This document shows positions 4,827-24,184 of a stretch of DNA of 64,000 bases, piece after piece. Where the stretch lies: positions 32,001-96,000 of the IMG/VR virus record IMGVR_UViG_3300034152_001291; one strand, given 5' to 3'. Below the pieces are notes generated by a model. The model saw nothing but the letters and a program-made list of their open reading frames with translations. It ran no database searches and was not told the origin of the DNA. Position numbers and translations under genes: made by a program. The number at the start of each line of letters is the position of its first letter. Within the stretch, counting starts at the first letter, position 1. The stretch comes from a virus.

Positions 4827-6176
4827 ATGGCGCGATCTGTCATCTTCGTGAACAACAGCGGCACCGACTGGGATCTTCCCGGTCTCGGGGGCCGTATCGT
4901 CCCGGCCGCCGGCACTCTCGACGTCACCAACGAGATCACCGACGACGAATTGATCGCCGCGCTCCAGAACCCGCTCGCCGGGATCGTGTTCGCGGCCGAT
5001 CGCTTCCTGCGCGTCAACGGCGTGGACTGGACACAGGCGCAGTCCGAGAACTACGGGAACCAGGCCGACCCTACGGCCACTCCGGCGGCGAACCACGCGC
5101 TGGGGGGCACTCAGCACGAGACCGACACGCTTGCCAACCTCAACGCCAAGATCAGCGACGACGATGTCCAAGGCACCTCTCAGAAAGGAGCGGCGAACGG
5201 TTACGCTTCTCTGGGTGCAGCCGCGGAGGTTCCTAACATCGAACTTCCGGGCCACCCTGACTTCCACGAGGCCGGAGGAAAGGGCGAGATCAGCATCTCT
5301 GGATTGGCGGGCGTGGCTGGAGATCCGCAGGTTCCTCAGGCCCACGCCCCCAATCATGAAGGTGGATCCGACCCCATCTCTCCCGCAGGAATAGGAGCCG
5401 AGTCGGCGTTCTCCAAGAATACGGCCTTCAACAAGAACTTCGGGTCAGGCGCGGGAACGGTGTGTGAAGGGGATGACGCCCGGCTTTCCGACGCTCGCGA
5501 TCCCACGGCTCACCCGCTCGCTTCCGGTGCGGGGCCGCACACGGGCGATCTCCCCTGGAGCGAACTCAACAAGACTGGCTCCAGCCTCGCCGATCTCGCC
5601 ACCCGAGCGCACGCGAACCTCACGGGGGTCGGCGCGGACGATCACCACAACCGGCAGCACGCCCTGGACAGCGGCTCGGATCACACAGGCGCGATTACGG
5701 ATGCCCAGCATGGCTCTCGTGGCGGGAGCGCCCTTCACTCCGCCGCCACTCCGAGCGTCAACGGGTTCATGTCCTCGGCGGACAAGACGAAACTGGACGC
5801 TTTTGGGACGCCCCAGCAGGCCAGCGCCACGAGCAATGCTACCACGTCCAGCGGCGGGGACGTGCTGATGGCCGGGATGACCCTGACGCCCGGCGCGGGC
5901 AACTACATCGTCAACTTCAGCACGTCGCTGAACATCAATGCCAGCAACCAGACCGGGTTCATCTCGGTGTATGTCAACGGCGTTCAGGTGACCCACACGG
6001 AGCGTAGATATGCCAGCCCGGGTTTCGTCGGAGCCCAGCTGATCATCCCGATCTCCGTCTGCGCCTACATCACCGGAGTCGGCGCGGGACAGGCCGTGGA
6101 GATTCGGTGGCGCAGCACCGGCGGCGCGACTCTCACGGTGCCCCAGAGGACCCTCGTTCTTCAGAAGGTGATGTAA
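4827..6176 (+). CDS. tail-fibre-like protein with His-rich repeats
   Basis: KGAANGYASL, GDDARLSDAR, GFMSSADKTKLD fibre motifs; multiple HxxxH motifs; beta-rich C-terminal domain. Confidence 0.7.
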   Translation: MARSVIFVNNSGTDWDLPGLGGRIVPAAGTLDVTNEITDDELIAALQNPLAGIVFAADRFLRVNGVDWTQAQSENYGNQADPTATPAANHALGGTQHETDTLANLNAKISDDDVQGTSQKGAANGYASLGAAAEVPNIELPGHPDFHEAGGKGEISISGLAGVAGDPQVPQAHAPNHEGGSDPISPAGIGAESAFSKNTAFNKNFGSGAGTVCEGDDARLSDARDPTAHPLASGAGPHTGDLPWSELNKTGSSLADLATRAHANLTGVGADDHHNRQHALDSGSDHTGAITDAQHGSRGGSALHSAATPSVNGFMSSADKTKLDAFGTPQQASATSNATTSSGGDVLMAGMTLTPGAGNYIVNFSTSLNINASNQTGFISVYVNGVQVTHTERRYASPGFVGAQLIIPISVCAYITGVGAGQAVEIRWRSTGGATLTVPQRTLVLQKVM

Positions 6177-10521: not shown

Positions 10522-10790
10522 CGCTCGGCGCGGCGGGCGCCGGGCTGGGGATCGGCGGGGGGCTTGCCTCCCATCTCAGGAAGTACCGGGCTCAGAAGAA
10601 GGAGTGGCTCGCAGGACGGGCCAGTCCTCCCATCCACCCCAAGAGCGTCAAGGTCTGGGATTACCTCAGGCGTCCTTCCATGATCACGCCGAGCCTGGCC
10701 CGTCGCATCATGGGCGGGGCCGCCGCCGGGGCCGGGACCGCTCTCGCCTTGAATGAGATCCTCAAGCGTCTAAAGAAGCGCAAGAAATGA
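10338..10790 (+). CDS. GF-x-E-E-I-x-K-I-A leader protein with glycine-zipper hydrophobic segments
   Basis: MGHQSSFAFRGFAEEIQKIADW...GALTLGAAGAGLGIGGGL...IMGGAAAGAGTALAL; stop overlaps the RNAP start. Confidence 0.7.
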   Translation: MGHQSSFAFRGFAEEIQKIADWREEVLGDGVRSDAQEVLPEEGGAQEKIARKKKKEEDGALTLGAAGAGLGIGGGLASHLRKYRAQKKEWLAGRASPPIHPKSVKVWDYLRRPSMITPSLARRIMGGAAAGAGTALALNEILKRLKKRKK

Positions 10791-13700
10791 TCAACGCCGA
10801 CCAGCAGTTTCCGGAGATGATGAAGCGGGTGGAGAACGCGATCTCCCGCGCTTTTCCCATCGAGTCCAAGCGGCACGTCATGGACGTCCGGAACCTGCGT
10901 TGGAAGAACTTCGGGCCTTCGATCCGGGACAACATCCGGCTTCAGAAAGAGTTCAAGAACAAGGACAAGACCCTCTCCGCCGACCTGGTCGGGGACGTGA
11001 GGATCCGGTCGAGAGCGGGGAGGGTGGTCGACACCAAGCCCGGCATGGTGCTCGTCACCCTCCCTCACATTACCAACCGGGCCTCCTACATCGTCAACGG
11101 CCACGAGGTGCAGACGGTGAACCAGCTCCGGCTGCGCCCGGGCCCCTACTCGAGGTTCACCTCCGACGACAACACGGAGACCTTCATCAATGCGGCGGGC
11201 GGAGGTTATAAGATCATCTTCAACCGCCAGACGGGCGTGCTCCGCTTGAAGTCCGGCTCCTCATTCTTCTACCTCTACCCGATCCTGAAGAGCCTCGGCG
11301 TCACGGACGCGCAAATGAAGTCGGCGTGGGGTGGCGATATCTTCACCGCTAACAAGGCGCACGACAAGAGCGATCAGGTTACGCGCCTCTACCGGAACAT
11401 GCGTCCTTACGCCGAGATCCCGGAGGATCCGGAGGAGCTGTCCACCGCCGTCGACACCTTCTTTCGTTCGAAGCAGCTCGACCCGAAGATCTCCAAGATC
11501 ACGATGGGGAAGGAATACGATCGGATCTCTCCCGACCTTCTTCTCCGGTCCAGCGGGAAGGCGATCGACCTGGCCAAGGGCAGCGTGGAGATGGACGACA
11601 CCGAGTCGCTCGCTTTCAAGTCCATCCACAGCGTCGAGGATTTCATCCCCGAGAGAATCGAGAAGGCCATCCCGAGCGTGAAGCGCGCGATCCAGTTCAA
11701 GATGGACAGGGCCCCCAAGATCTCGAGCCTTCTCTCTCCCGCGTCCTTCTCCAATCCCGTGATCGATTGGTTCATCACGAGCGAGTTCACCCGCTACTCG
11801 GACCAGCAGAATCCCGTGGACATGGCGTCGACGAGCCAGCTAACGACCACCATGGGAGAGGGAGGAATTCGAAGCGCCCACGCCGTGACCGACCAGGTGC
11901 GCATGGTTCACCCCTCCCAGATGGGTTTCTTGGATCCCATTCACAGCCCGGAGGGTGGTCGGATCGGTGTGACGGGGCACCTCACGATCGGAGCGGAGAA
12001 GAAGGGCGACAGCCTCTACACCAAGGTCATCGACGCGAAGACCGGCCGCCAGGTCTCGAAGAGCGCTCAGGACCTCGAGAACGCGGTCATCGCCTTCAAT
12101 GACCAGTACGACCTGACTGGGGACCGGCCACGTCCCTTGAAGCCGAGGGTGGAGGTCCGGGCAAAGGGGAAAATTCAGATTGTTCCAGCGTCGCAGGTCG
12201 AGTACGTCTTCAGGGATCCCAGGTCGTTCTTCTCGGTCACGTCGAACGCGATTCCCTTCCTCCACAACAACAACCCCAACCGCGGGCAGATGGCGGACCG
12301 CCACATCGAGCAGACCGTCCCCCTGACCGATCCGGACAGTCCCGTGGTTCAATCCAAGTTTCAAGGCAAGGAGGGCTTCGACGACTTCTTCGGCCGGAAC
12401 GTGAGCATCCAGTCCCCGGTGGATGGGACGGTCACCCTGGTTCGGAACGACCGGCTCAAGATCCGGGGAGACGACGGAAAGATGTACCTGGCCTACCTTC
12501 ACTACCAGTACCCCCTGAACGGAGGTTCGTTCCTCACGGACAGGCCGACCGTGAAGGCGGGGGACCGCGTCAAGAAAGGGCAGGTCATCGCGGAGAACAA
12601 CTTCTCGAAGGGAGGGGCGCTGGCTCTCGGCAAGACGCTCAGGACAGCTTACGTTCCTTACAAGGGCTACAACTTCGAGGACGGGGTGGTCATCTCCCAG
12701 GCCGCCGCGAGGAAGCTGACTTCCGAGCACCAGTATCAGCTCAGGCTCGACATCGACAGGAACACCAGGGTGGGGCTCGACATCTTCCTCGCGCACTTCC
12801 CGGACGAGATCGTGAACATCGATCGGGCCAAGTACGATCGGGACGGGATAGTCAGGAAGGGAAGCCGGGTCACCAAGGATGAGATCCTGGTCCCGGCCGT
12901 GTCCCAGACCGAGGTCAGCGAAGAATTCGACTACGCCCGTCTTCACAAGTCGCTGAAGAAGCCGTGGCGCAACGCCTCCATCGTGTGGGAGAGCGACTTT
13001 CCGGGTGAGGTCGTGGACGTCGTGAAGACCTCGAAATTCATCAAGGTGTTTCTTCGAACGGAGGAAGCTGCGCAGGTGGGCGACAAGGTCTCCCAGCGAT
13101 CAGGCGGGAAGGGAATCATCGTCAACATACTCCCGGATAATGAGATGCTCCAAGGAGAGGACGGGAAGCCGGTGGATGTCCTCTTCAATCCCGGGGGCGT
13201 CACGGGGCGCGTGAATCCGGGACAGCTCTACGAAGCGAGCATGGGGAAGGTCTCGAGGAAGACCGGCGAGAAGTACCTGGTGGAGAACTTCTCTCCGGAG
13301 TCGTCTCTCGACCGCGTTCAGGCGGAGATGCGAAAAGCGGGCGTCAAGGATACCGAGACGCTCACGGATCCCGGCACGGGGAACAAGATCAACGATATTT
13401 TTACGGGCGACATTCACTTCCTGAAGCTCCAGCATCAGGTTCGGAACAAGTTCAAGGCGAGAGGCCTCGGCAGTTACACGACGGACGAGCAGCCGAGCAA
13501 GGTCGGGAAGGAGTCGGCACAGAACATCGGATCTGGGGAGCTCTACGCTCTTCTCGCCTCGGGAGCCATGCACTTCCTGAAAGACACGACGACACTGAAG
13601 TCGCAGTCGAATCCTGAATACTGGCGCGCCCTTCAGACCGGCCTCCCCACGCCGCCCCCGCAGCAGCCTTTCATTCTCGACAAGTTCGTCACGAGTCTGG

Positions 13701-16700
13701 AGGGGGCCGGCGTCAACCTGGCCCGCGAAGGATCGAAGGTGAAGGCCCTCCCCATGACGGACAAGGACGTGGAGTCCCGGTCCAGGGGAGAGATCAAGAA
13801 CTTCACCGTGGTCCGGGCGTCAGACTTGAAGCCGGAGGCCGGAGGGCTCTTCGACAAGGGGATCACGGGAGGCTACGACGGGGTCCACTGGGCCCATATC
13901 GATCTCGAGACCCCCATGCCGAGCCCGCTCATGGAGAAGGCCCTGATCGCGGTCGCGGGCCTGAAGCCCGCCGAGTACAAGTCGATCATGCGAGGCACGC
14001 TCTTCGTGACGAGGGACGGGCACTTGACGACGGACTCGAAGAAGGGGGCGCCGGCGGGAGAAGGCCTGAAGATTCTCCTCGATAAGGTCAATGTGGAGAG
14101 GGATCTCGAGGATACGATTTCCCAGATCCGGATCGCCCGGGGCAGCAGGCTGGACGACCTGAACAAGAAGCGTCGCTACCTCCAGGCCCTGAAATCGTCG
14201 AAGCTCACGCCCTCCGAGGCCTACATCACAAGCAAGGTCCCCGTGATCCCGCCCAAGTTCAGGCCGGTCTACCCCCTGCCGGACGGGTCTCTGAACGTGG
14301 CCGACCCTAATCACGGGTATCGTGAAGTCCTGATGATCAACAATCAGCTGAAGGCGCTGAGGAATCAGGGTGTCGACAACAGGAATCTCGCTTCCATGCG
14401 GGCGGATCTCTACGGGGCTCTCCAGGGGTTGACGGGCATGACGGAGCCTCTCACCAGGGCCAAGAACTTCAGGGGCTTCGTCTCGACCATCAAGGGGAGG
14501 TCGAACAAGAGAGGGCTGTTCCAGGGAAAGGTGGTGAAGAGGCCCCAGGACCTCTCCGGGCGCTCTACGGTGATCCCCGATCCGAATCTCGGAATCGACG
14601 AGGTGGGTCTTCCGGCCGACATGGCGCTGACCATCTACAAGCCGTTTTTGGTGCGCCGTCTCGTGGGCATGGGCTACAAGCCCACCGAGGCCATGGATCT
14701 CGTCGACAAGAAAGATCCGAAGGTTTTGGACATCCTGAAGGACGAGGCGGCGGAGCGCCCGGTCTGGATGAATCGCGCGCCGAGCCTTCACAAATTCAGC
14801 ATGCTTCCCTTCAGGCCGAGGATCGCTCCCGGCAAGGCGATCCAGGTCAATCCCCTCATCGTGAAGGGGTTCAACATGGACTTCAACGGGGATTCCTGCT
14901 CGCCCGATACCGTCGTTTACGTTCGGCGTGTCTCCGATAGAACATTATTCGTGGGGTCTTTCGATGAATTTGTGAAGAACGAGCTCTTGCCTGGAATCGA
15001 TGACGCCGGTTTGGAGGAGATAGCCGGGGGCGTCACTGGAATTCTTGAGTTCGCTGATTCAGCTTATGAGGTCCTGGGACTTTTCGAGGGGAAAATTGCG
15101 TGGCAGCCTTTGAACCAGATAACGATACACACATCTCACGGGCCATGCTTTGAAGTCTCGTTCAAATCCGGTGACACTTTGATCTGTTCCGAGCACCACA
15201 ATCTATTCGGGGTGGATCCAGATACCCTCGATCTTTTCACTTTCAAAACCGAAAAGCATGAGGAGTATCCCGACGTTGTCGTCCCTATCGTCTCATTGTG
15301 GGATTCCGAACCGGTCGGCAACGCAAGGATTCCGGCCCTGGACTCGGGCAGGCGGCTGGATACTGTCCCTGTCGATGACGATTTGGCCTGGTGGACGGGA
15401 GTCTATGTTGGGGAGGGAAGCCTGACCGGACGGAATGATATCGTATCCTGTTCGTCTTCCGATCCGGAGATGCTTGGCCAGATCAAGATCGCTATGGAAC
15501 GCATTGGGCCCGTGTGGGAAACAGATAACCAGGTGAGGATAACAAGTAAAGATCTCTTCAAGGCTTTTGAGAGTGCTTTCGGAAAGGGAAGCCAGAACAA
15601 GAAGTTTCCGGATTTCGTCTTCGAGATGCCTCCGGCGCTTCGGTTGCAGGCCGTTGTCGGTTTCCTCGACGCGGAAGCACAGGCCGCATTTGATATCAAC
15701 GGTCGTCCATTCTTGACGGTAGAATTGACGAGTCTCCAGGCTCTCCGGCAAGTATCCATGTTGATGAGAAGCGTAGGCATCCGGAGCTCCATAAGAGAAG
15801 GTCGACCGGAAAAAACCGGAAGGAAGAAGACCTGGATTCTTTACGTTGAGAAATCCGGATTCGGGCTTCTTCCAAACTTTCGATCAAAATCGAAAAAAGA
15901 ATGGCAGGCTAAAGTTCGAAACTTTTCTGAAATCTCCAGAAGTCGGATGGATATGGTTCCAATGTTCGATTCGGTCTTCTCGGCTCTCACGAAGAAAGGC
16001 CTGGAGAATAGGACAGAGGATAAAAAGACGCGGGCCGAACGCAGAGCGTGGGCGAAAGAGTATGCTTCCAGCCATGGAGTTCCTTTCGGGCCTGTATCGA
16101 AAAGCGATCTTGTCGGGCATTCTTTGATAACACGTCGAGCCGCGTTCAGAATTGCGGCCTGGTACGGTCCATTCGAGAAGGATTCTCTTCTCGACAAGTG
16201 GAGATCCCTGGTGGAGAACACTTCCGTATCGTACACGGAGATTTCTTGCCGAGAAATCGACCGGCTCCCGATCCTTTACGATTTCAGCGTTCCTCCGAAT
16301 GAAGCCTTTGTTGTCAACTCTGGAATCGTGACGCACAACACCGTCGGCATCCATGTCCCCGTCAGCGAGGAGGCCCGGCAGGAGGCTTTCCAGAAGCTTC
16401 CGTCCAAGCAGCTGCTCTCGGTCCGGGAGCAGTCGGCGGTCCACACTCCGTCGAAGGAATATGTCCTCGGTCTCTACCTCATGACGCATCCCAAAGGAAA
16501 GACTGTCACGGCGAAGTCTCGTACCGACATGATGGCCCAGTATCAGGCCAAGAAGATCAAGGTGAACACGCCCGTGAAGATAGGGTCGGATATCTGGACG
16601 CCGGGCCAGGCTCTGGTCGACGATGTCTTTCCCGTAGGGCTGAAGCCCGGCAACAGGGTGATGGACAAGAGGACGGTGGAGACCCTTCTCTTCGAGGTCG

Positions 16701-18247
16701 CCAGAAAGGAGCCCAACAAGGCCGGTGACGTCATCAGCAGGATCAAGGACCTCGGCGCTCATTTCGTGACCGAGATCGGCTACTCCTTCGGGCTCGAGGA
16801 CCTCAAGTTCGACTACAAGAAACGCGAGCAGATCCTGGATGAGGCCGAGAAGAAAACGCCCAAGATCGGTTTCGAGAAGGCCTACGGGCAGGCTCTTGAC
16901 AAGATGAACAGCGAGATTCGGAAGACGAAAGGGAATCGGGTCGTCGAAGGCAGCATCACTTCGGGAGCTTTCGGCAAGGCCGACATGGTCACGCAGATGA
17001 TTGCCACGCCCGTGGCGGTCCGGGACCACAAGAATGAGATCATCCCGGTCCCTATCAAACGATCGTTTGCGGAAGGGCACGGAATTTCGAGCTACTGGGC
17101 AACGGCGCCGGGGGCTCGCAAGGGTCTGATCGAGAAGGGCCTCGGCACGGCGGAGACGGGAGCGCTGAGCAAGCGCCTGATCAACACCACCGTCACGCAG
17201 ACAATCAGCATGAAGGACTGCGGCACGACCGAGGGAACTCTGATGCCGATCGAGTCCCGCGACGCGCTGGACCACTTCGTCGCCGACGGCCCGTTCAAGA
17301 AGGAGGCGATCACGTCCGAGCTCGTGACACAGATGAAGCGACGCGGCCTGAAGCAGGTGCTCGTTCGGTCTCCGCTGAAGTGCGAGGCTCCCCAGGGAGT
17401 CTGCGCGATGTGCTTCGGCCTGCTGGAAAACGGGAAGGTCCCGCCGATCGGCTACAACGTGGGCGTCCTTTCGGGCCAGGCCGTCTCGGAACCCATGACC
17501 CAGCTCACTCTGAGGGCCTTCCATACGGGCGGAGCAATGGCGCAGAAGGCGGTCGGCTTCGACCGGATCAAACAGATTTTCGAACTCCCGGAGAATCTCC
17601 CTGGACGCGCCCCGCTCGCTCAGACCACGGGCAAGGTCGAATCGATCGACCCGGCTCCCGGCGGGGGTTGGATCGTGGTCATCGGGGGTGTGGACCATTT
17701 CGTGCCTCAGGAGCGCGGGCTCGGGGTGAAGAGAGGCGACAGGGTCTTGGCGGGTCAGCAGATCTCCAAGACCGGGGTCATTCGCCCTCAGGAACTACTC
17801 GCAGCCACGAACGACATCGATAAGGTTCGTGGCCAGATGGTGAAGGATCTCAACAAGGAGTTCGGGACGGGTGGTGTCCATATTCAGCGAAAGCTCCTCG
17901 AGACCGTCGTGCGCCCGATGACTGATCGAGCTGAGGTGACGGACGCCGGCGACGGAGAAAAGAAGGGCTACTTCAAGGGGGACGTCGTCGCCATAAACAA
18001 GCTCGAGAAGACGAACAAGGAGATCCGTAAGGCCGGCGGGAAACCGATCGAATATCAGCCCACTCTTTTGTCCATCCGCGTCGCCCCGTATCATAGCGGC
18101 GACTTCATCGGGAAGCTGATGTTCGAGCGTCCTCACGAGACGATCTCGGCCGCCCCGAGGATCGGCGCCGAGGCGGATGTGGTGAAGGGACACCCGATCA
18201 CGCGCCACACGTTCGGTCGCTACTTTGGAGCTCGGAATAAGAAATGA
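10787..18247 (+). CDS. rpoBC: DNA-directed RNA polymerase beta-beta' fusion, intein-containing
   Basis: beta motifs (YIVNG..Q.R.PG, VHPSQMG..SPEG, GYNFED, GDK...KG, KLQHQV) then beta' motifs (PEAGGLFD, VIPPKFRP, DLSGRS, NRAPSLH, NMDFNGD, GARKG, CEAPQGVCAMC, EPMTQLTLRAFHTGG) in one frame. Confidence 0.95.
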   Translation: MINADQQFPEMMKRVENAISRAFPIESKRHVMDVRNLRWKNFGPSIRDNIRLQKEFKNKDKTLSADLVGDVRIRSRAGRVVDTKPGMVLVTLPHITNRASYIVNGHEVQTVNQLRLRPGPYSRFTSDDNTETFINAAGGGYKIIFNRQTGVLRLKSGSSFFYLYPILKSLGVTDAQMKSAWGGDIFTANKAHDKSDQVTRLYRNMRPYAEIPEDPEELSTAVDTFFRSKQLDPKISKITMGKEYDRISPDLLLRSSGKAIDLAKGSVEMDDTESLAFKSIHSVEDFIPERIEKAIPSVKRAIQFKMDRAPKISSLLSPASFSNPVIDWFITSEFTRYSDQQNPVDMASTSQLTTTMGEGGIRSAHAVTDQVRMVHPSQMGFLDPIHSPEGGRIGVTGHLTIGAEKKGDSLYTKVIDAKTGRQVSKSAQDLENAVIAFNDQYDLTGDRPRPLKPRVEVRAKGKIQIVPASQVEYVFRDPRSFFSVTSNAIPFLHNNNPNRGQMADRHIEQTVPLTDPDSPVVQSKFQGKEGFDDFFGRNVSIQSPVDGTVTLVRNDRLKIRGDDGKMYLAYLHYQYPLNGGSFLTDRPTVKAGDRVKKGQVIAENNFSKGGALALGKTLRTAYVPYKGYNFEDGVVISQAAARKLTSEHQYQLRLDIDRNTRVGLDIFLAHFPDEIVNIDRAKYDRDGIVRKGSRVTKDEILVPAVSQTEVSEEFDYARLHKSLKKPWRNASIVWESDFPGEVVDVVKTSKFIKVFLRTEEAAQVGDKVSQRSGGKGIIVNILPDNEMLQGEDGKPVDVLFNPGGVTGRVNPGQLYEASMGKVSRKTGEKYLVENFSPESSLDRVQAEMRKAGVKDTETLTDPGTGNKINDIFTGDIHFLKLQHQVRNKFKARGLGSYTTDEQPSKVGKESAQNIGSGELYALLASGAMHFLKDTTTLKSQSNPEYWRALQTGLPTPPPQQPFILDKFVTSLEGAGVNLAREGSKVKALPMTDKDVESRSRGEIKNFTVVRASDLKPEAGGLFDKGITGGYDGVHWAHIDLETPMPSPLMEKALIAVAGLKPAEYKSIMRGTLFVTRDGHLTTDSKKGAPAGEGLKILLDKVNVERDLEDTISQIRIARGSRLDDLNKKRRYLQALKSSKLTPSEAYITSKVPVIPPKFRPVYPLPDGSLNVADPNHGYREVLMINNQLKALRNQGVDNRNLASMRADLYGALQGLTGMTEPLTRAKNFRGFVSTIKGRSNKRGLFQGKVVKRPQDLSGRSTVIPDPNLGIDEVGLPADMALTIYKPFLVRRLVGMGYKPTEAMDLVDKKDPKVLDILKDEAAERPVWMNRAPSLHKFSMLPFRPRIAPGKAIQVNPLIVKGFNMDFNGDSCSPDTVVYVRRVSDRTLFVGSFDEFVKNELLPGIDDAGLEEIAGGVTGILEFADSAYEVLGLFEGKIAWQPLNQITIHTSHGPCFEVSFKSGDTLICSEHHNLFGVDPDTLDLFTFKTEKHEEYPDVVVPIVSLWDSEPVGNARIPALDSGRRLDTVPVDDDLAWWTGVYVGEGSLTGRNDIVSCSSSDPEMLGQIKIAMERIGPVWETDNQVRITSKDLFKAFESAFGKGSQNKKFPDFVFEMPPALRLQAVVGFLDAEAQAAFDINGRPFLTVELTSLQALRQVSMLMRSVGIRSSIREGRPEKTGRKKTWILYVEKSGFGLLPNFRSKSKKEWQAKVRNFSEISRSRMDMVPMFDSVFSALTKKGLENRTEDKKTRAERRAWAKEYASSHGVPFGPVSKSDLVGHSLITRRAAFRIAAWYGPFEKDSLLDKWRSLVENTSVSYTEISCREIDRLPILYDFSVPPNEAFVVNSGIVTHNTVGIHVPVSEEARQEAFQKLPSKQLLSVREQSAVHTPSKEYVLGLYLMTHPKGKTVTAKSRTDMMAQYQAKKIKVNTPVKIGSDIWTPGQALVDDVFPVGLKPGNRVMDKRTVETLLFEVARKEPNKAGDVISRIKDLGAHFVTEIGYSFGLEDLKFDYKKREQILDEAEKKTPKIGFEKAYGQALDKMNSEIRKTKGNRVVEGSITSGAFGKADMVTQMIATPVAVRDHKNEIIPVPIKRSFAEGHGISSYWATAPGARKGLIEKGLGTAETGALSKRLINTTVTQTISMKDCGTTEGTLMPIESRDALDHFVADGPFKKEAITSELVTQMKRRGLKQVLVRSPLKCEAPQGVCAMCFGLLENGKVPPIGYNVGVLSGQAVSEPMTQLTLRAFHTGGAMAQKAVGFDRIKQIFELPENLPGRAPLAQTTGKVESIDPAPGGGWIVVIGGVDHFVPQERGLGVKRGDRVLAGQQISKTGVIRPQELLAATNDIDKVRGQMVKDLNKEFGTGGVHIQRKLLETVVRPMTDRAEVTDAGDGEKKGYFKGDVVAINKLEKTNKEIRKAGGKPIEYQPTLLSIRVAPYHSGDFIGKLMFERPHETISAAPRIGAEADVVKGHPITRHTFGRYFGARNKK
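14894..16339 (+). mobile_element. intein (482 aa) with LAGLIDADG homing endonuclease in the RNAP catalytic loop
   Basis: Starts SCSPDTVV directly after DFNGD, ends VTHN followed by Thr; block B CSEHH; TGVYVGEGS and VGFLDAEA; lower GC. Confidence 0.92.
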
Positions 18248-22378: not shown

Positions 22379-24184
22379 ATGAAAATCTCCTACGAAGATC
22401 CCGTCTCCAGCGGAATCCGCCGCGCGATCAATCCGGACAAGTTCCGGGTATGGGACACCCCTTCCTGTTCGGGAGACCTGGTCCAGGAGGGGGTGGTCGA
22501 TGTCGCCAAGGATTTCGAGTTCGAGCAGGCCTTCGAGGATAATGAGATCCTCCTCGAGGGGAAATACTCGGACTTCGCCCAGCACCTCGTGACGATCAAC
22601 CGGAAGCCCTTGTCTCTCGAGGGGCGGGAATACCTGAAGCCGATCTACGACCAGTACGAGGAGTTTCCCCGGGGATCGAAAGACATCGTCCTTGTCGCGG
22701 GAAGGCAGGTCGAGAAGTCCAGCTCGATGGCGTCCATTGCCATCACGCGCTGCTGTGTGATCCCCTCCCATACCGTGCTGGTCATCCAGCCCCGGGACGC
22801 CCAGACCAAGATCTTCAGCCAGCAGCGCTTCGACCCGATGGCCACCGACTCCGAGGTCCTTCAGGAGCTTTTCCTCGGGACCAAGAACGTGTGGCAGGTC
22901 GGCGCCAAGATCTTCAACAACGGTTCGGTCGCCAACTTCAAGTCCTGCTTCTATTCGGCGGACCCCATCCGGGGCATCACGTCGGGCGATCTCTTCATCG
23001 ACGAGTTGCAGGACGTGATATCGGACAACATCCCCGTTCTCGAGGAGTGCCAGTCCCACATCTTCCCCGAGGACCGGTTCAACCTCTACGCCGGGACGCC
23101 GAAGACGACCTCCAACACCCTGAACCTCCACTACAAGGAGACATGCCAGTTCGAGTGGATGGTGAAGTGCCAGGGCTGCAAGCACTACAACTTTCTCGAT
23201 GCGAAGGTCATCGGGAAGCACCACTACATCTGCTCGAGGTGCGGGAAGCAGATCTATCCTCTCCTGCACGGGGAGTGGGTCGCGATGCGCCCGAGCAAGA
23301 TCGACGATCGGTGGGGATTTCGCGTGTCGCAGATCATGGTCCCCTTCATGCGTCACAGCGAGGTCCTCAACAAGATGGAGAACCCGAACATCCCGACACG
23401 GGTTTTCCACAACGAGGTCCTCGGCCTCTCTTACGACGTGGGGCAGCTTCTCCTGACGGAGGGGGACATCCTCCGTCGTTGCGAGCCCAGGGTCCCCGAC
23501 ACGCACGAGACGATTCACAAGAGGAGGGATGTCTTCCTCTGCGCCGGGGTGGATCACGGGACCGGGGACTTCGCGGCAGGGGGCATGACGGATCTGGGTG
23601 TGGCCCGGAAGGCCTCCACCCGCCCCTCGTTCACTGCGATAGCGCTCGGCGGTTTCTGCTCCGACAACAAGTTCAGGATCTTCCGGCTGATCAAGTTCAC
23701 GGGGGAGATGGCGAATCTCGCCCGGCAGCCCGAGTTCATCGACGAGGTCATCCGATCCTATGGGGCGAAGTGGATCATGTCCGACCACGGTTTCGGCGCC
23801 CATACGAACGCCAGACTGGTGTCGGACCATGGCTGGACCCGCGTGGAGGACGAGCTGAATCCCCTTCTCATGGAGTGCGAATACTCGGGGATCCAGAAGA
23901 TTCCCGTGAAGTGGCACTCCCGAGCCTACCGCTACATCGTCCAGCGGAACTTCGCGATCGAGCACACCGTGGACGGGATCAAGAAGGGCGAGATCCTCTT
24001 CTTCAACGAGGGGGAGATGAAGCCCTACCTGGACGACTTCACGACCATGTTCACGGAGTACGATTTCAGGAGCAAGTCGGTTCGTTACGACCACGTCCTG
24101 CCGGACGACTGTTTCCAGGCCGTGGTCTACTGTTATCTGGCCGCCTTGCAGCGGCGGGGGAGGCTCACCCCCAGCTACGGTTAG
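22379..24184 (+). CDS. terminase large subunit (lambda gpA-like)
   Basis: Walker A variant AGRQVEKS, Walker B LFIDELQD, GTPK, Zn knuckles CQGC/CSRC, nuclease AGVDHG...MSD...PDD. Confidence 0.9.
   Translation: MKISYEDPVSSGIRRAINPDKFRVWDTPSCSGDLVQEGVVDVAKDFEFEQAFEDNEILLEGKYSDFAQHLVTINRKPLSLEGREYLKPIYDQYEEFPRGSKDIVLVAGRQVEKSSSMASIAITRCCVIPSHTVLVIQPRDAQTKIFSQQRFDPMATDSEVLQELFLGTKNVWQVGAKIFNNGSVANFKSCFYSADPIRGITSGDLFIDELQDVISDNIPVLEECQSHIFPEDRFNLYAGTPKTTSNTLNLHYKETCQFEWMVKCQGCKHYNFLDAKVIGKHHYICSRCGKQIYPLLHGEWVAMRPSKIDDRWGFRVSQIMVPFMRHSEVLNKMENPNIPTRVFHNEVLGLSYDVGQLLLTEGDILRRCEPRVPDTHETIHKRRDVFLCAGVDHGTGDFAAGGMTDLGVARKASTRPSFTAIALGGFCSDNKFRIFRLIKFTGEMANLARQPEFIDEVIRSYGAKWIMSDHGFGAHTNARLVSDHGWTRVEDELNPLLMECEYSGIQKIPVKWHSRAYRYIVQRNFAIEHTVDGIKKGEILFFNEGEMKPYLDDFTTMFTEYDFRSKSVRYDHVLPDDCFQAVVYCYLAALQRRGRLTPSYG

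Follow-up and report, generated by a model that had tools for sequence, protein, structure and literature searches.

Multisubunit-type RNA polymerases are all taken to share an invariant core, a loop bearing three Mg-binding aspartates, and in the cellular enzymes this triad has been described as conserved universally, each of its Asp residues coordinating Mg (bioRxiv 10.1101/2024.06.20.599782). The closest described departure is in PolD of archaea, a working two-barrel polymerase whose a-motif reads NxDGD (PMC7708050). There the N962D mutant is stated to give full-length products, as data not shown, the PolD of Thaumarchaeota has DxDGD, and ribonucleotide addition is said to need the third Asp (PMC7708050). 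The PolD catalytic loop is also an intein insertion site (PMC7708050, PMC4996933), with the intein lying between N962 and C963 in about half of PolD species, and work cited in the first of these papers found the Asn and the Cys to be critical for intein excision (PMC7708050). The PolII intein has the extein flanks ...K-R-N / C-D-G-D-E-D (PMC8175363). Splicing is affected by extein residues near the junction (PMC4031507), and the D211N form of Ty1 reverse transcriptase retains activity in vitro (PMC2148107). The relevant literature found on inteins at DFDGD concerned PolD; our searches returned no publication on inteins in the NADFDGD loop and none on an intein N-extein Asp, anhydride and N-terminal cleavage, and the listed titles and abstracts on inteins, virion RNA polymerases and jumbo phages contained nothing on this point.

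The locus described here lies in a window of 64,000 nucleotides, the whole stretch of viral DNA that was analysed, and resembles archaeal PolD DP2 with its PolII intein (Pab/Pho) in that an Asn occupies one of the RNAP Asp positions and the catalytic loop is the intein site, PolD being active. The analogy is inexact because the PolD Asn is at the first triad position, −1 to the intein, whereas the window Asn is at the second, −3 to the intein, and so the loop is not of the PolD NxDGD type. Further, the PolD family has Asn as its consensus whether or not an intein is present, in contrast to the window-type Asn, which is confined to intein-bearing alleles. The PolII inteins run from Cys1 to Gln and reside in a DNA polymerase, while the window intein runs from Ser1 to His-Asn, carries a LAGLIDADG endonuclease and resides in a phage RNA polymerase.

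The polymerase gene and its catalytic loop

The precursor ORF, for a fused beta-beta' RNA polymerase, occupies 10787..18247 on the + strand and encodes 2486 aa, or 2004 aa without the intein. Its N-extein (10787..14893, +) holds beta and the N-terminal part of beta' up to the catalytic loop, and its C-extein (16340..18247, +) holds the remaining beta' and begins with the residues TVGIHVPVSEEA. Pfam recovers on the ORF the two-barrel RNAP beta and beta' domain set (Rpb2_6 at 3e-52, Rpb2_3, and Rpb1 domains 1, 2, 3 and 5) together with LAGLIDADG_3. The loop, NMDFNGD, is at 14873..14893 (+), residues 1363-1369 of the ORF, and its codons read as the first-pass annotation had them: AAC (14873-14875), ATG (14876-14878), GAC (14879-14881), TTC (14882-14884), AAC (14885-14887), GGG (14888-14890) and GAT (14891-14893). 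In its position in beta', its surrounding motifs and its domain order it matches the canonical RNAP loop NADFDGD, and it differs in the second Asp, which the window letters AAC at 14885..14887 (+) replace by Asn, giving D-F-N-G-D instead of the DxDGD of multisubunit RNAP. Intein-less relatives of the window polymerase have N[AM]DFDGD, and the named phage relatives Arash, Vibrio D69 and D181 have DYDGD in a loop without an intein.

The remaining active-site elements, which had been called intact from the sequence, are indeed found: NFEDG at aa 629, GDK...GKG at aa 765, NRAPSLH at aa 1329, a bridge-helix-like GARKGLIEKG at aa 2109 and a trigger-loop-like LTLRAFHTGG at aa 2240, these being motifs that we take, by reference to E. 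coli sequences, to be the counterparts of the named ones. The argument that the gene is not dead also holds up, since among flanking columns at least 95% conserved in intein-less relatives the window polymerase keeps 43 of 44, the one loss being the Asn. Retention of conserved residues is 0.93 and 0.91 in the Asn-bearing groups against 0.94 for intein-bearing alleles with a DDD triad, and no relaxed selection on Asn-bearing polymerases was seen among the 8 DND and 18 DDN proteins with long enough flanks. This is the sole RNAP-domain gene of the 124.7-kb record, which derives from a metagenome and is only 63% complete, so that a second polymerase may be encoded elsewhere in the genome. The gene sits within a block of head and packaging genes, with the terminase large subunit at 22379-24184, and the homologue in phage Arash adjoins portal and structural genes; a location of this kind makes a virion-packaged enzyme with long storage plausible.

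The intein beside the loop

A class-1 intein of 482 aa with a nested LAGLIDADG homing endonuclease is encoded at 14894..16339 (+; aa 1370-1851) and extends from Ser1 to His-Asn. Its first residue is the Ser directly after GD (aa 1370, nt 14894) and not the Cys that follows, and so the intein directly adjoins the loop, where the first-pass annotation had put it two residues away. The position following GD holds S in 28 of the 29 related inteins and C in the remaining one, and the position after that is variable (C 15, V 7, I 3, T 3, F 1). The C-terminal splice junction, His-Asn / Thr(+1), is at 16334..16342 (+) and reads ...IVTHN then T, the +1 residue across the 29-member lineage being T in 27, S in 1 and C in 1. 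Excision of S...HN in silico yields DFNGD-TVGIHVP, of the same length as the DFDGD-TVGIHVP of intein-less relatives. Block B is S-E-H-H (15188..15199, +; intein residues 99-102), aligned to T-S-G-H of PI-PkoII, and two LAGLIDADG-like motifs named by eye, WWTGVYVGEGS and AVVGFLDAEA, are spanned by the region 15389..15679 (+).

On the intein Pfam scores LAGLIDADG_3 at 1.9e-7 and Intein_splicing at 19.3 bits, under the 35.8 cut-off of that family, and a sequence match to PI-PkoII (2cw7) has E = 6e-10. The AF2 model (pLDDT 86.2, pTM 0.87) has 7qss, 1dq3 and 2cw7 as its best PDB matches, and the fold is that of the class-1 LAGLIDADG inteins TliVMA (7qss), PI-PfuI (1dq3), PI-TkoII/PkoII (2cw7) and PI-SceI (1vde), at Foldseek E = 3e-22 to 4e-11. 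With these inteins it has in common the Ser1, the block B x-x-H, the His-Asn C-terminus and the Thr at +1; it differs from them in sharing only 10-17% identity, in having an additional His in block B (position 9), and in lying inside the metal-binding loop of a polymerase with a co-inherited catalytic change in the extein. The class-1 features are thus present throughout, from the Ser nucleophile and block B x-x-H to His-Asn followed by Thr, a HINT fold with LAGLIDADG, and motif spacing that is restored on excision. Judged by its sequence and its modelled fold the intein is canonical and intact, and both splicing and homing are predicted for it.

Distribution of the encoded asparagine

Homologue loops were located by an HMM-anchored search, from which all counts given here come. 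The 335 homologues examined comprise 229 DxDGD, 32 DxNGD, 72 DxDGN and 2 NxDGD loops, NFDGD occurring only in P0245 and P0289; more than 100 natural phage polymerases therefore encode Asn at one triad position, with an intein at the same peptide bond each time. D[FYH]NGD stands beside all 29 inteins of the window lineage, as defined by Ser/Cys1, block B x-x-H-H and a C-terminal HN (23 DFNGD, 3 DHNGD, 3 DYNGD), and a truncated protein, P0232, is an additional DxNGD carrier. The polymerases hosting the 29 inteins are 29-44% identical to that of the window. The Asn codon is AAT in six metagenome loci (L024, L025, L026, L028, L029 and L030; five distinct sequences) against AAC in the window, the Ser1 codons of the lineage include both TCN and AGC, and no reversion of Asn to Asp is seen among the 29 members. 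The use of both AAC and AAT with no return to Asp points to selection on the amino acid. DFNGD is hence not confined to this one sequence, whereas it was uniqueness to this sequence, with relaxed selection on the gene, that the first-pass annotation had named as speaking against its idea; with 29 members, divergent polymerases and both Asn codons, it is confirmed that the Asn is genuinely encoded and that DxNGD is neither unique nor an error. A search of IMG/VR for DFNGD-SC gave 13 matches, none in a related context, and 12 were copies of one repeated sequence; by that pattern, then, IMG/VR contains no further member of the lineage. In a tblastn search with loop, intein and flank none of 50,697 phage records matched at E <= 1e-6, and hence no cultured carrier was found there.

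The survey of homologues with and without the intein that had been suggested at first pass separates the two completely, the Asn accompanying 29 of 29 lineage inteins and none of 107 intein-less loop alleles, a sample drawn mostly from the window polymerase's own clade. In a sample that was not intein-seeded (120 proteins) Asn occurs in 8 of 26 proteins with a loop insertion and in 0 of 94 without (Fisher p = 1.9e-6), the 8 Asn variants representing only two intein lineages. Within IMG/VR, DFNGD-TM has 1 match and DFDGN-TM 5, none in RNAP context, against at least 118 loci for DFDGD-TM, at least 104 of them in RNAP context. The earlier suggestion that the Asn might be a means of homing-site escape finds no support in these counts. 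The proposed connection of the Asn with the intein, on the other hand, is borne out by the trees: on a tree of 227 loop inteins the 29 DxNGD/HN members group together as a single clade with support 96, next to a sister group of three DDD inteins that end in HQ. This tree needs 5 triad-state changes and the extein tree, built from 218 of these proteins, needs 67, and so the Asn belongs to the intein and not to the polymerase lineage. For the window polymerase the nearest 13 exteins (62-85% identical) are all DDD and the nearest DND extein is 44% identical, while the nearest 28 inteins (24-31% identical) are all DND. The triad state is paralleled in block B, where positions 9-10 are HH in 29/29 members of the DxNGD lineage; the three sister inteins and 44/58 of the DDD loop inteins not of the SN type have DH there, and 61/72 of the DxDGN lineage have NE.

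The DxDGN lineage, of 72 members, is monophyletic on the intein tree (support 100) and combines DxDGN, its Asn found in 72/72, with a Cys1...[YWF]D intein followed by Thr; our searches found no paper that describes it. Like the window lineage it has its insertion point directly after the loop, one triad Asp encoded as Asn and a spread over very different polymerases, but it is a separate clade with the Asn at the third position (−1), an intein ending in Asp and no block B His, and the window intein, with Asp at −1, a C-terminal Asn and HH in block B, lies outside it. An Asp at −1 leads to premature cleavage. The idea that Asn at −1 is an invariable consequence of a Cys1 thioester was rejected, as 20 Cys1 loop inteins keep Asp there, and a forcing of Asn by a C-terminal Asp was likewise rejected, as 52 DDD inteins end in Asp.

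Explanations for the asparagine

The Asn is linked to the intein lineage and retained at the level of the amino acid, beside a polymerase and an intein that are both intact. The reading we prefer, to which we give roughly even odds (about 0.5), is that the Asn is kept by selection as the extein component of an intein-extein unit shaped by co-adaptation and that the mature enzyme keeps it as a neutral Mg ligand. The unit would consist of Ser1 (rarely Cys1), block B x-x-His-His, His-Asn and a +1 Thr, always together with D-x-N-G-D, and in phage beta-beta' RNA polymerases would occupy the peptide bond that immediately follows the Mg-binding loop. It would spread by homing of the endonuclease into DFDGD alleles that have no intein, the Asn codon, 7-9 nt from the insertion point, being co-copied, which would place the same Asn in very different polymerase backgrounds. 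The N-terminal splice site appears to have been rewired, with His replacing the usual Asp before the catalytic His of block B, and may function only with an uncharged −3 residue; such a contact between residue −3 and block B is suggested by covariation over few independent origins. In the mature polymerase the catalytic Mg would be bound by two carboxylates and the Asn carbonyl oxygen, and by analogy with PolD the Asn-containing enzyme would be active. The Asn is probably costly there, which may be why it is never seen without an intein. Against this reading it weighs that a conversion mechanism would equally be expected to confine the Asn to intein-bearing alleles, and that in cellular RNAPs all three Asp are described as Mg ligands.

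Of the two mechanisms offered by the first-pass annotation, the two-carboxylate site is thus favoured, PolD with its NxDGD being a working enzyme, and deamidation fails as a general answer. By deamidation, the Asn-Gly would pass after splicing through a succinimide to Asp or isoAsp and so regain the third carboxylate, possibly during virion storage. Asn-Gly is the fastest-deamidating context, Gly follows the Asn in 29/29 lineage members, the position of the gene in the head and packaging block makes a stored virion enzyme plausible, and the want of any Asn in the 107 intein-less alleles indicates that Asn and Asp are not freely interchangeable. Yet we judge it unlikely: the Gly is invariant in all loops anyway, which makes the Asn-Gly no specific adaptation; an intein-less DFNGD would deamidate equally, leaving the restriction to inteins unexplained; and the product is mostly isoAsp, which would alter the backbone of the catalytic loop. 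Moreover Asn before Thr, Ser or Phe deamidates slowly, and 74 of the 107 Asn variants (72 DxDGN with Thr or Ser next, 2 NFDGD) stand in these contexts, so most cases would need another explanation. A broader version, in which the intein lineage forces the encoded Asn and a splicing- or storage-dependent succinimide restores the carboxylate, the virion polymerase being active only after maturation, seems quite improbable. Narrower, and very improbable, is that the intein itself converts its flanking Asn to Asp during splicing or directly afterwards, precise intein loss then giving a dead polymerase and the host an addiction. It would predict the all-or-none pattern observed in both lineages (29/29 and 72/72, against 0/107 intein-less), but we know of no chemistry that deamidates a residue at −3, and the intein is otherwise canonical class-1 with a C-terminus that is not rewired.

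Co-adaptation has also to be set against simple carriage, in which a mildly harmful Asn of single origin and with no role in splicing is carried in the homing co-conversion tract. The distance of 7-9 nt, the absence of Asn from intein-less alleles and the 5 against 67 state changes on the intein and extein trees would all fit. One A-to-G transition would restore Asp, however, and 0/29 have reverted despite an intein identity of 24-31% and changes between AAC and AAT; in addition Asp-to-Asn has arisen at least 5 separate times, each beside a loop intein, and the Asn covaries with intein block B, and we regard carriage alone as improbable. It is scarcely credible that AAC is a sequencing or assembly error or that the gene is a decaying pseudogene, for although the source is a metagenome-derived virus record, the Asn recurs across 29 cluster representatives and in 6 independent metagenome loci, and a 7.4-kb frame stays open with the conserved flanking columns and the intein blocks intact.

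What follows depends on the reading. Two carboxylates and an amide as in PolD, if true, would change what counts as essential in the active site, and co-adaptation would be a clear case in nature of a catalytic residue of the host protein changing to accommodate a mobile intein, paired with the His-His of block B. An Asp rebuilt post-translationally would be a new maturation chemistry, and its restoration by the intein would mean a selfish element made indispensable by editing a catalytic residue, with a dead enzyme upon precise intein loss.

The polymerase and its catalytic loop

The fused β-β' RNA polymerase of the window (protein P0001) is a plus strand ORF of 2486 aa (10787..18247) carrying the complete β and β' domain set in a single chain plus a LAGLIDADG domain, and comes from an IMG/VR virus record of 124.7 kb, estimated to be 63% complete and of around 60% G+C. 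Its catalytic loop NMDFNGD (14873-14893, plus strand; AAC ATG GAC TTC AAC GGG GAT) is confirmed from the codons, the second of the three Mg-binding Asp positions of the DxDGD triad being AAC, and so Asn. No other gene of the 124.7-kb, 63%-complete record has RNAP domains, and no DFDGD-coding stretch is found elsewhere in it. The first-pass annotation held that the gene is not dead, and this is borne out: P0001 is without decay and matches its intein-less relatives in 43 of the 44 flanking positions where at least 95% of them agree, the single difference being the Asn. It also retains what we take to be the NFED, GDK...GKG and NRAPSLH elements and bridge-helix-like and trigger-loop-like stretches. 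Retention of conserved columns, for long-flank proteins only, is 0.93 for 8 proteins with the Asn at the second triad position (DND), 0.91 for 18 with it at the third (DDN) and 0.94 for 69 intein-bearing proteins with the intact triad (DDD). Given a terminase large subunit gene on the same strand (22379-24184), and a homologue adjoining portal and structural genes in Salmonella phage Arash, packaging of the polymerase in the virion is plausible.

Directly after the GD of the loop lies an intein of 482 aa (S-C-S-P-D-T ... I-V-T-H-N), followed by T-V-G-I-H-V-P of the extein, and so it is not two residues away as first annotated. It begins at the Ser, since 28 of 29 related inteins have S here and the other has C, and excising S...HN gives the spacing of intein-less relatives; a start at the following Cys was rejected on the same grounds, that position being variable. 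Block B reads S-E-H-H, aligning with T-S-G-H of PI-PkoII, and an AlphaFold model (13-sequence alignment; pLDDT 86.2, pTM 0.87) resembles endonuclease-bearing class-1 inteins (7qss at 3e-22, 1dq3, 2cw7). The intein is canonical, with a block-B His and a C-terminal His-Asn. Its closest relative may be that of locus L029 (contig VFSW01000434.1, minus strand), which starts SCSPDTRILY as against SCSPDTVVYV in the window, has AGC as Ser1 codon and belongs to a polymerase of different background (…KIHPLVTG GFNADFNGD).

Asn tracks the intein and not the polymerase lineage

Four pooled searches gave 335 homologues with an identifiable loop, placed by HMM, and 7 more proteins without a loop match; the triads are 229 DDD, 72 DDN, 32 DND and 2 NDD, totals enriched for intein-bearing alleles because three of the searches were intein-seeded. 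All 107 homologues without a loop insertion are DDD, none having Asn, whilst those with an insertion comprise 122 DDD, 72 DDN, 31 DND and 2 NDD; the remaining DND protein breaks off after the loop. DFNGD is thus not unique to the window. In the search whose main seed was the N-extein (120 matches listed of 457), Asn occurs in 8 of 26 alleles with an insertion and in none of the 94 lacking one (Fisher p = 1.9e-6), the eight representing two intein lineages only. An intein-blind DNA scan of IMG/VR gave one match to DFNGD-TM and five to DFDGN-TM, with no intein-less Asn loop in polymerase context among these six, and at least 118 loci for DFDGD-TM, 104 being in polymerase-loop context among the matches listed. 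In two loop-intein alleles (P0245 and P0289) it is the first residue of the triad that is Asn (NFDGD); their inteins are of the x1...LSN type in one and of the Ser1...ED type in the other. Asn is possible at any of the three triad positions, with an intein present every time.

Of the 31 DND insertion alleles, 29 have inteins of the form S/C1 ... (T/S/V)-H-N then T/S/C (the DND/HN lineage, which includes the window's) and two the x1...L-S-N type. A FastTree phylogeny built from 497 columns of 227 loop inteins has 5 changes of triad state, as against 67 on the extein tree covering 218 of these proteins and 72 on an extein tree of 326 proteins. The 29 DND/HN inteins form a single clade (support 96), sister to three DDD inteins ending H-Q, and the 72 DDN inteins (Cys1 ... 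(Y/W/F)-D then T/S) another (support 100), sister to six Ser1...(Y/W)D DDD inteins; the other Asn origins are one clade of two DND/SN inteins and two NDD singletons. The 13 exteins nearest to the window's (62-85% identical) are all DDD, 12 of them intein-less, and no DND extein comes closer than 44% identity, whereas every one of its 28 nearest inteins (24-31% identical) is DND. The Asn therefore belongs to the intein: it came with the intein or has remained beside it, and does not follow the polymerase lineage. In this the intein link suggested by the first-pass annotation stands. Since the Asn codon is only 7-9 nt from the insertion point, homing that co-converts the codon together with the intein would be the obvious vehicle.

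The Asn is also under selection. Scanning metagenomes for G-[FY]-N-A-D-F-N-G-D gave seven loci, six being polymerase loops followed by an intein of the DND/HN kind and one a chance match. Its codon is AAT in all six (five distinct sequences) and AAC in the window, and Ser1 codons include TCN and AGC, so both codons have undergone synonymous change; but a return to Asp, a single step from AAY to GAY, is seen in none of the 29 lineage members, despite inteins diverged to 24-31% identity.

Splicing, deamidation and the PolD precedent

Quite why Asn is kept may well lie in splicing. Block B, scored at the catalytic His position and the one before it, is D-H in 44 of 58 non-SN-type DDD loop inteins (the three sisters of the DND/HN lineage among them), but H-H in 29/29 DND/HN inteins, N-E in 61/72 DDN inteins and D-R in x1...LSN inteins. 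Going by these residues, every Asn-bearing lineage has an N-terminal splice site rewired in its own way. Residues of the extein near the junction influence N-terminal splicing steps, as PMC4031507 describes, and DND/HN inteins would require an uncharged residue at extein position -3, where the window has its Asn. The main rival, also proposed in the first-pass annotation, is a switch by Asn-Gly deamidation. Asn here precedes Gly, the pair that deamidates fastest, and inside a virion the enzyme would be given long enough for it; however the Gly is invariant in every loop regardless, Thr, Ser or Phe follows the Asn in 74 of 107 Asn variants, and an intein-less DFNGD allele would deamidate just as well, so the intein link goes unexplained and we consider deamidation unlikely. 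The window's lineage is a second, independent Asn case, in a canonical intein, and so speaks against explanations resting on the odd Asn/Asp 'swap' of the DDN lineage; the data favour a general rule whereby an intein at this bond brings selection for a triad Asn.

As to the mature enzyme, the absence of Asn from intein-less alleles means that it is not equivalent to Asp, and is either costly or needs conversion. In bioRxiv 10.1101/2024.06.20.599782 the RNAP triad is said to be universal and each of its three Asp to bind Mg, which counts against an Asn enzyme working. The closest precedent for a working Asn loop is PolD, with NxDGD in its a-motif versus DxDGD in RNAPs, and by analogy the D-N-D enzyme would be active with Asn. 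According to PMC7708050, PolD N962A is impaired and N962D yields full-length products (data not shown there), Thaumarchaeota have Asp at this position, and in about half of PolD species N962 and C963 are separated by an intein; the authors cite work in which this Asn and Cys matter for intein excision. PMC8175363 gives the flanks as K-R-N then C-D-G-D-E-D, and PMC4996933 places the site within the PolD catalytic loop. A full-text literature search for inteins in the RNAP DFDGD loop found PolD papers only. A two-barrel polymerase loop with an intein and Asn for Asp, as in PolD, is a known kind, of which the window holds a variant in an RNA polymerase.

Other loop inteins and related polymerases

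The peptide bond between GD and T is the precise target of at least five intein lineages. The commonest, 500-530 aa with 62 DDD members, has no Ser/Cys at position 1, ends L-S-N and has block B D-R; judged on position 1, C-terminus and block B it looks like a candidate class-3 intein, a class defined by a block-F Cys. A MAG contig titled Salinibacterium sp. (L158; match at 4829-4855, minus strand) has an ordinary bacterial rpoC context (…NRAPTLHRLGIQAF…) reading NADFNGDQMAVHLP with no intein; it is the sole RNAP-context match for its pattern among representative genomes of 185,579 species, and may be an assembly error or a genuine cellular D-N-D polymerase. Named relatives have the polymerase split into two genes some 85-95 aa past the catalytic loop, as in Salmonella phage Arash (L004; 7917-12494 and 17265-19085) and Vibrio phage D69 (L002; 1920-6503 and 7142-8971), and in Vibrio phage D181 (L003) a homing-endonuclease gene further divides the first piece. 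Many ORFs with DxDGN, such as that of P0148, stop around 90 aa past the intein.
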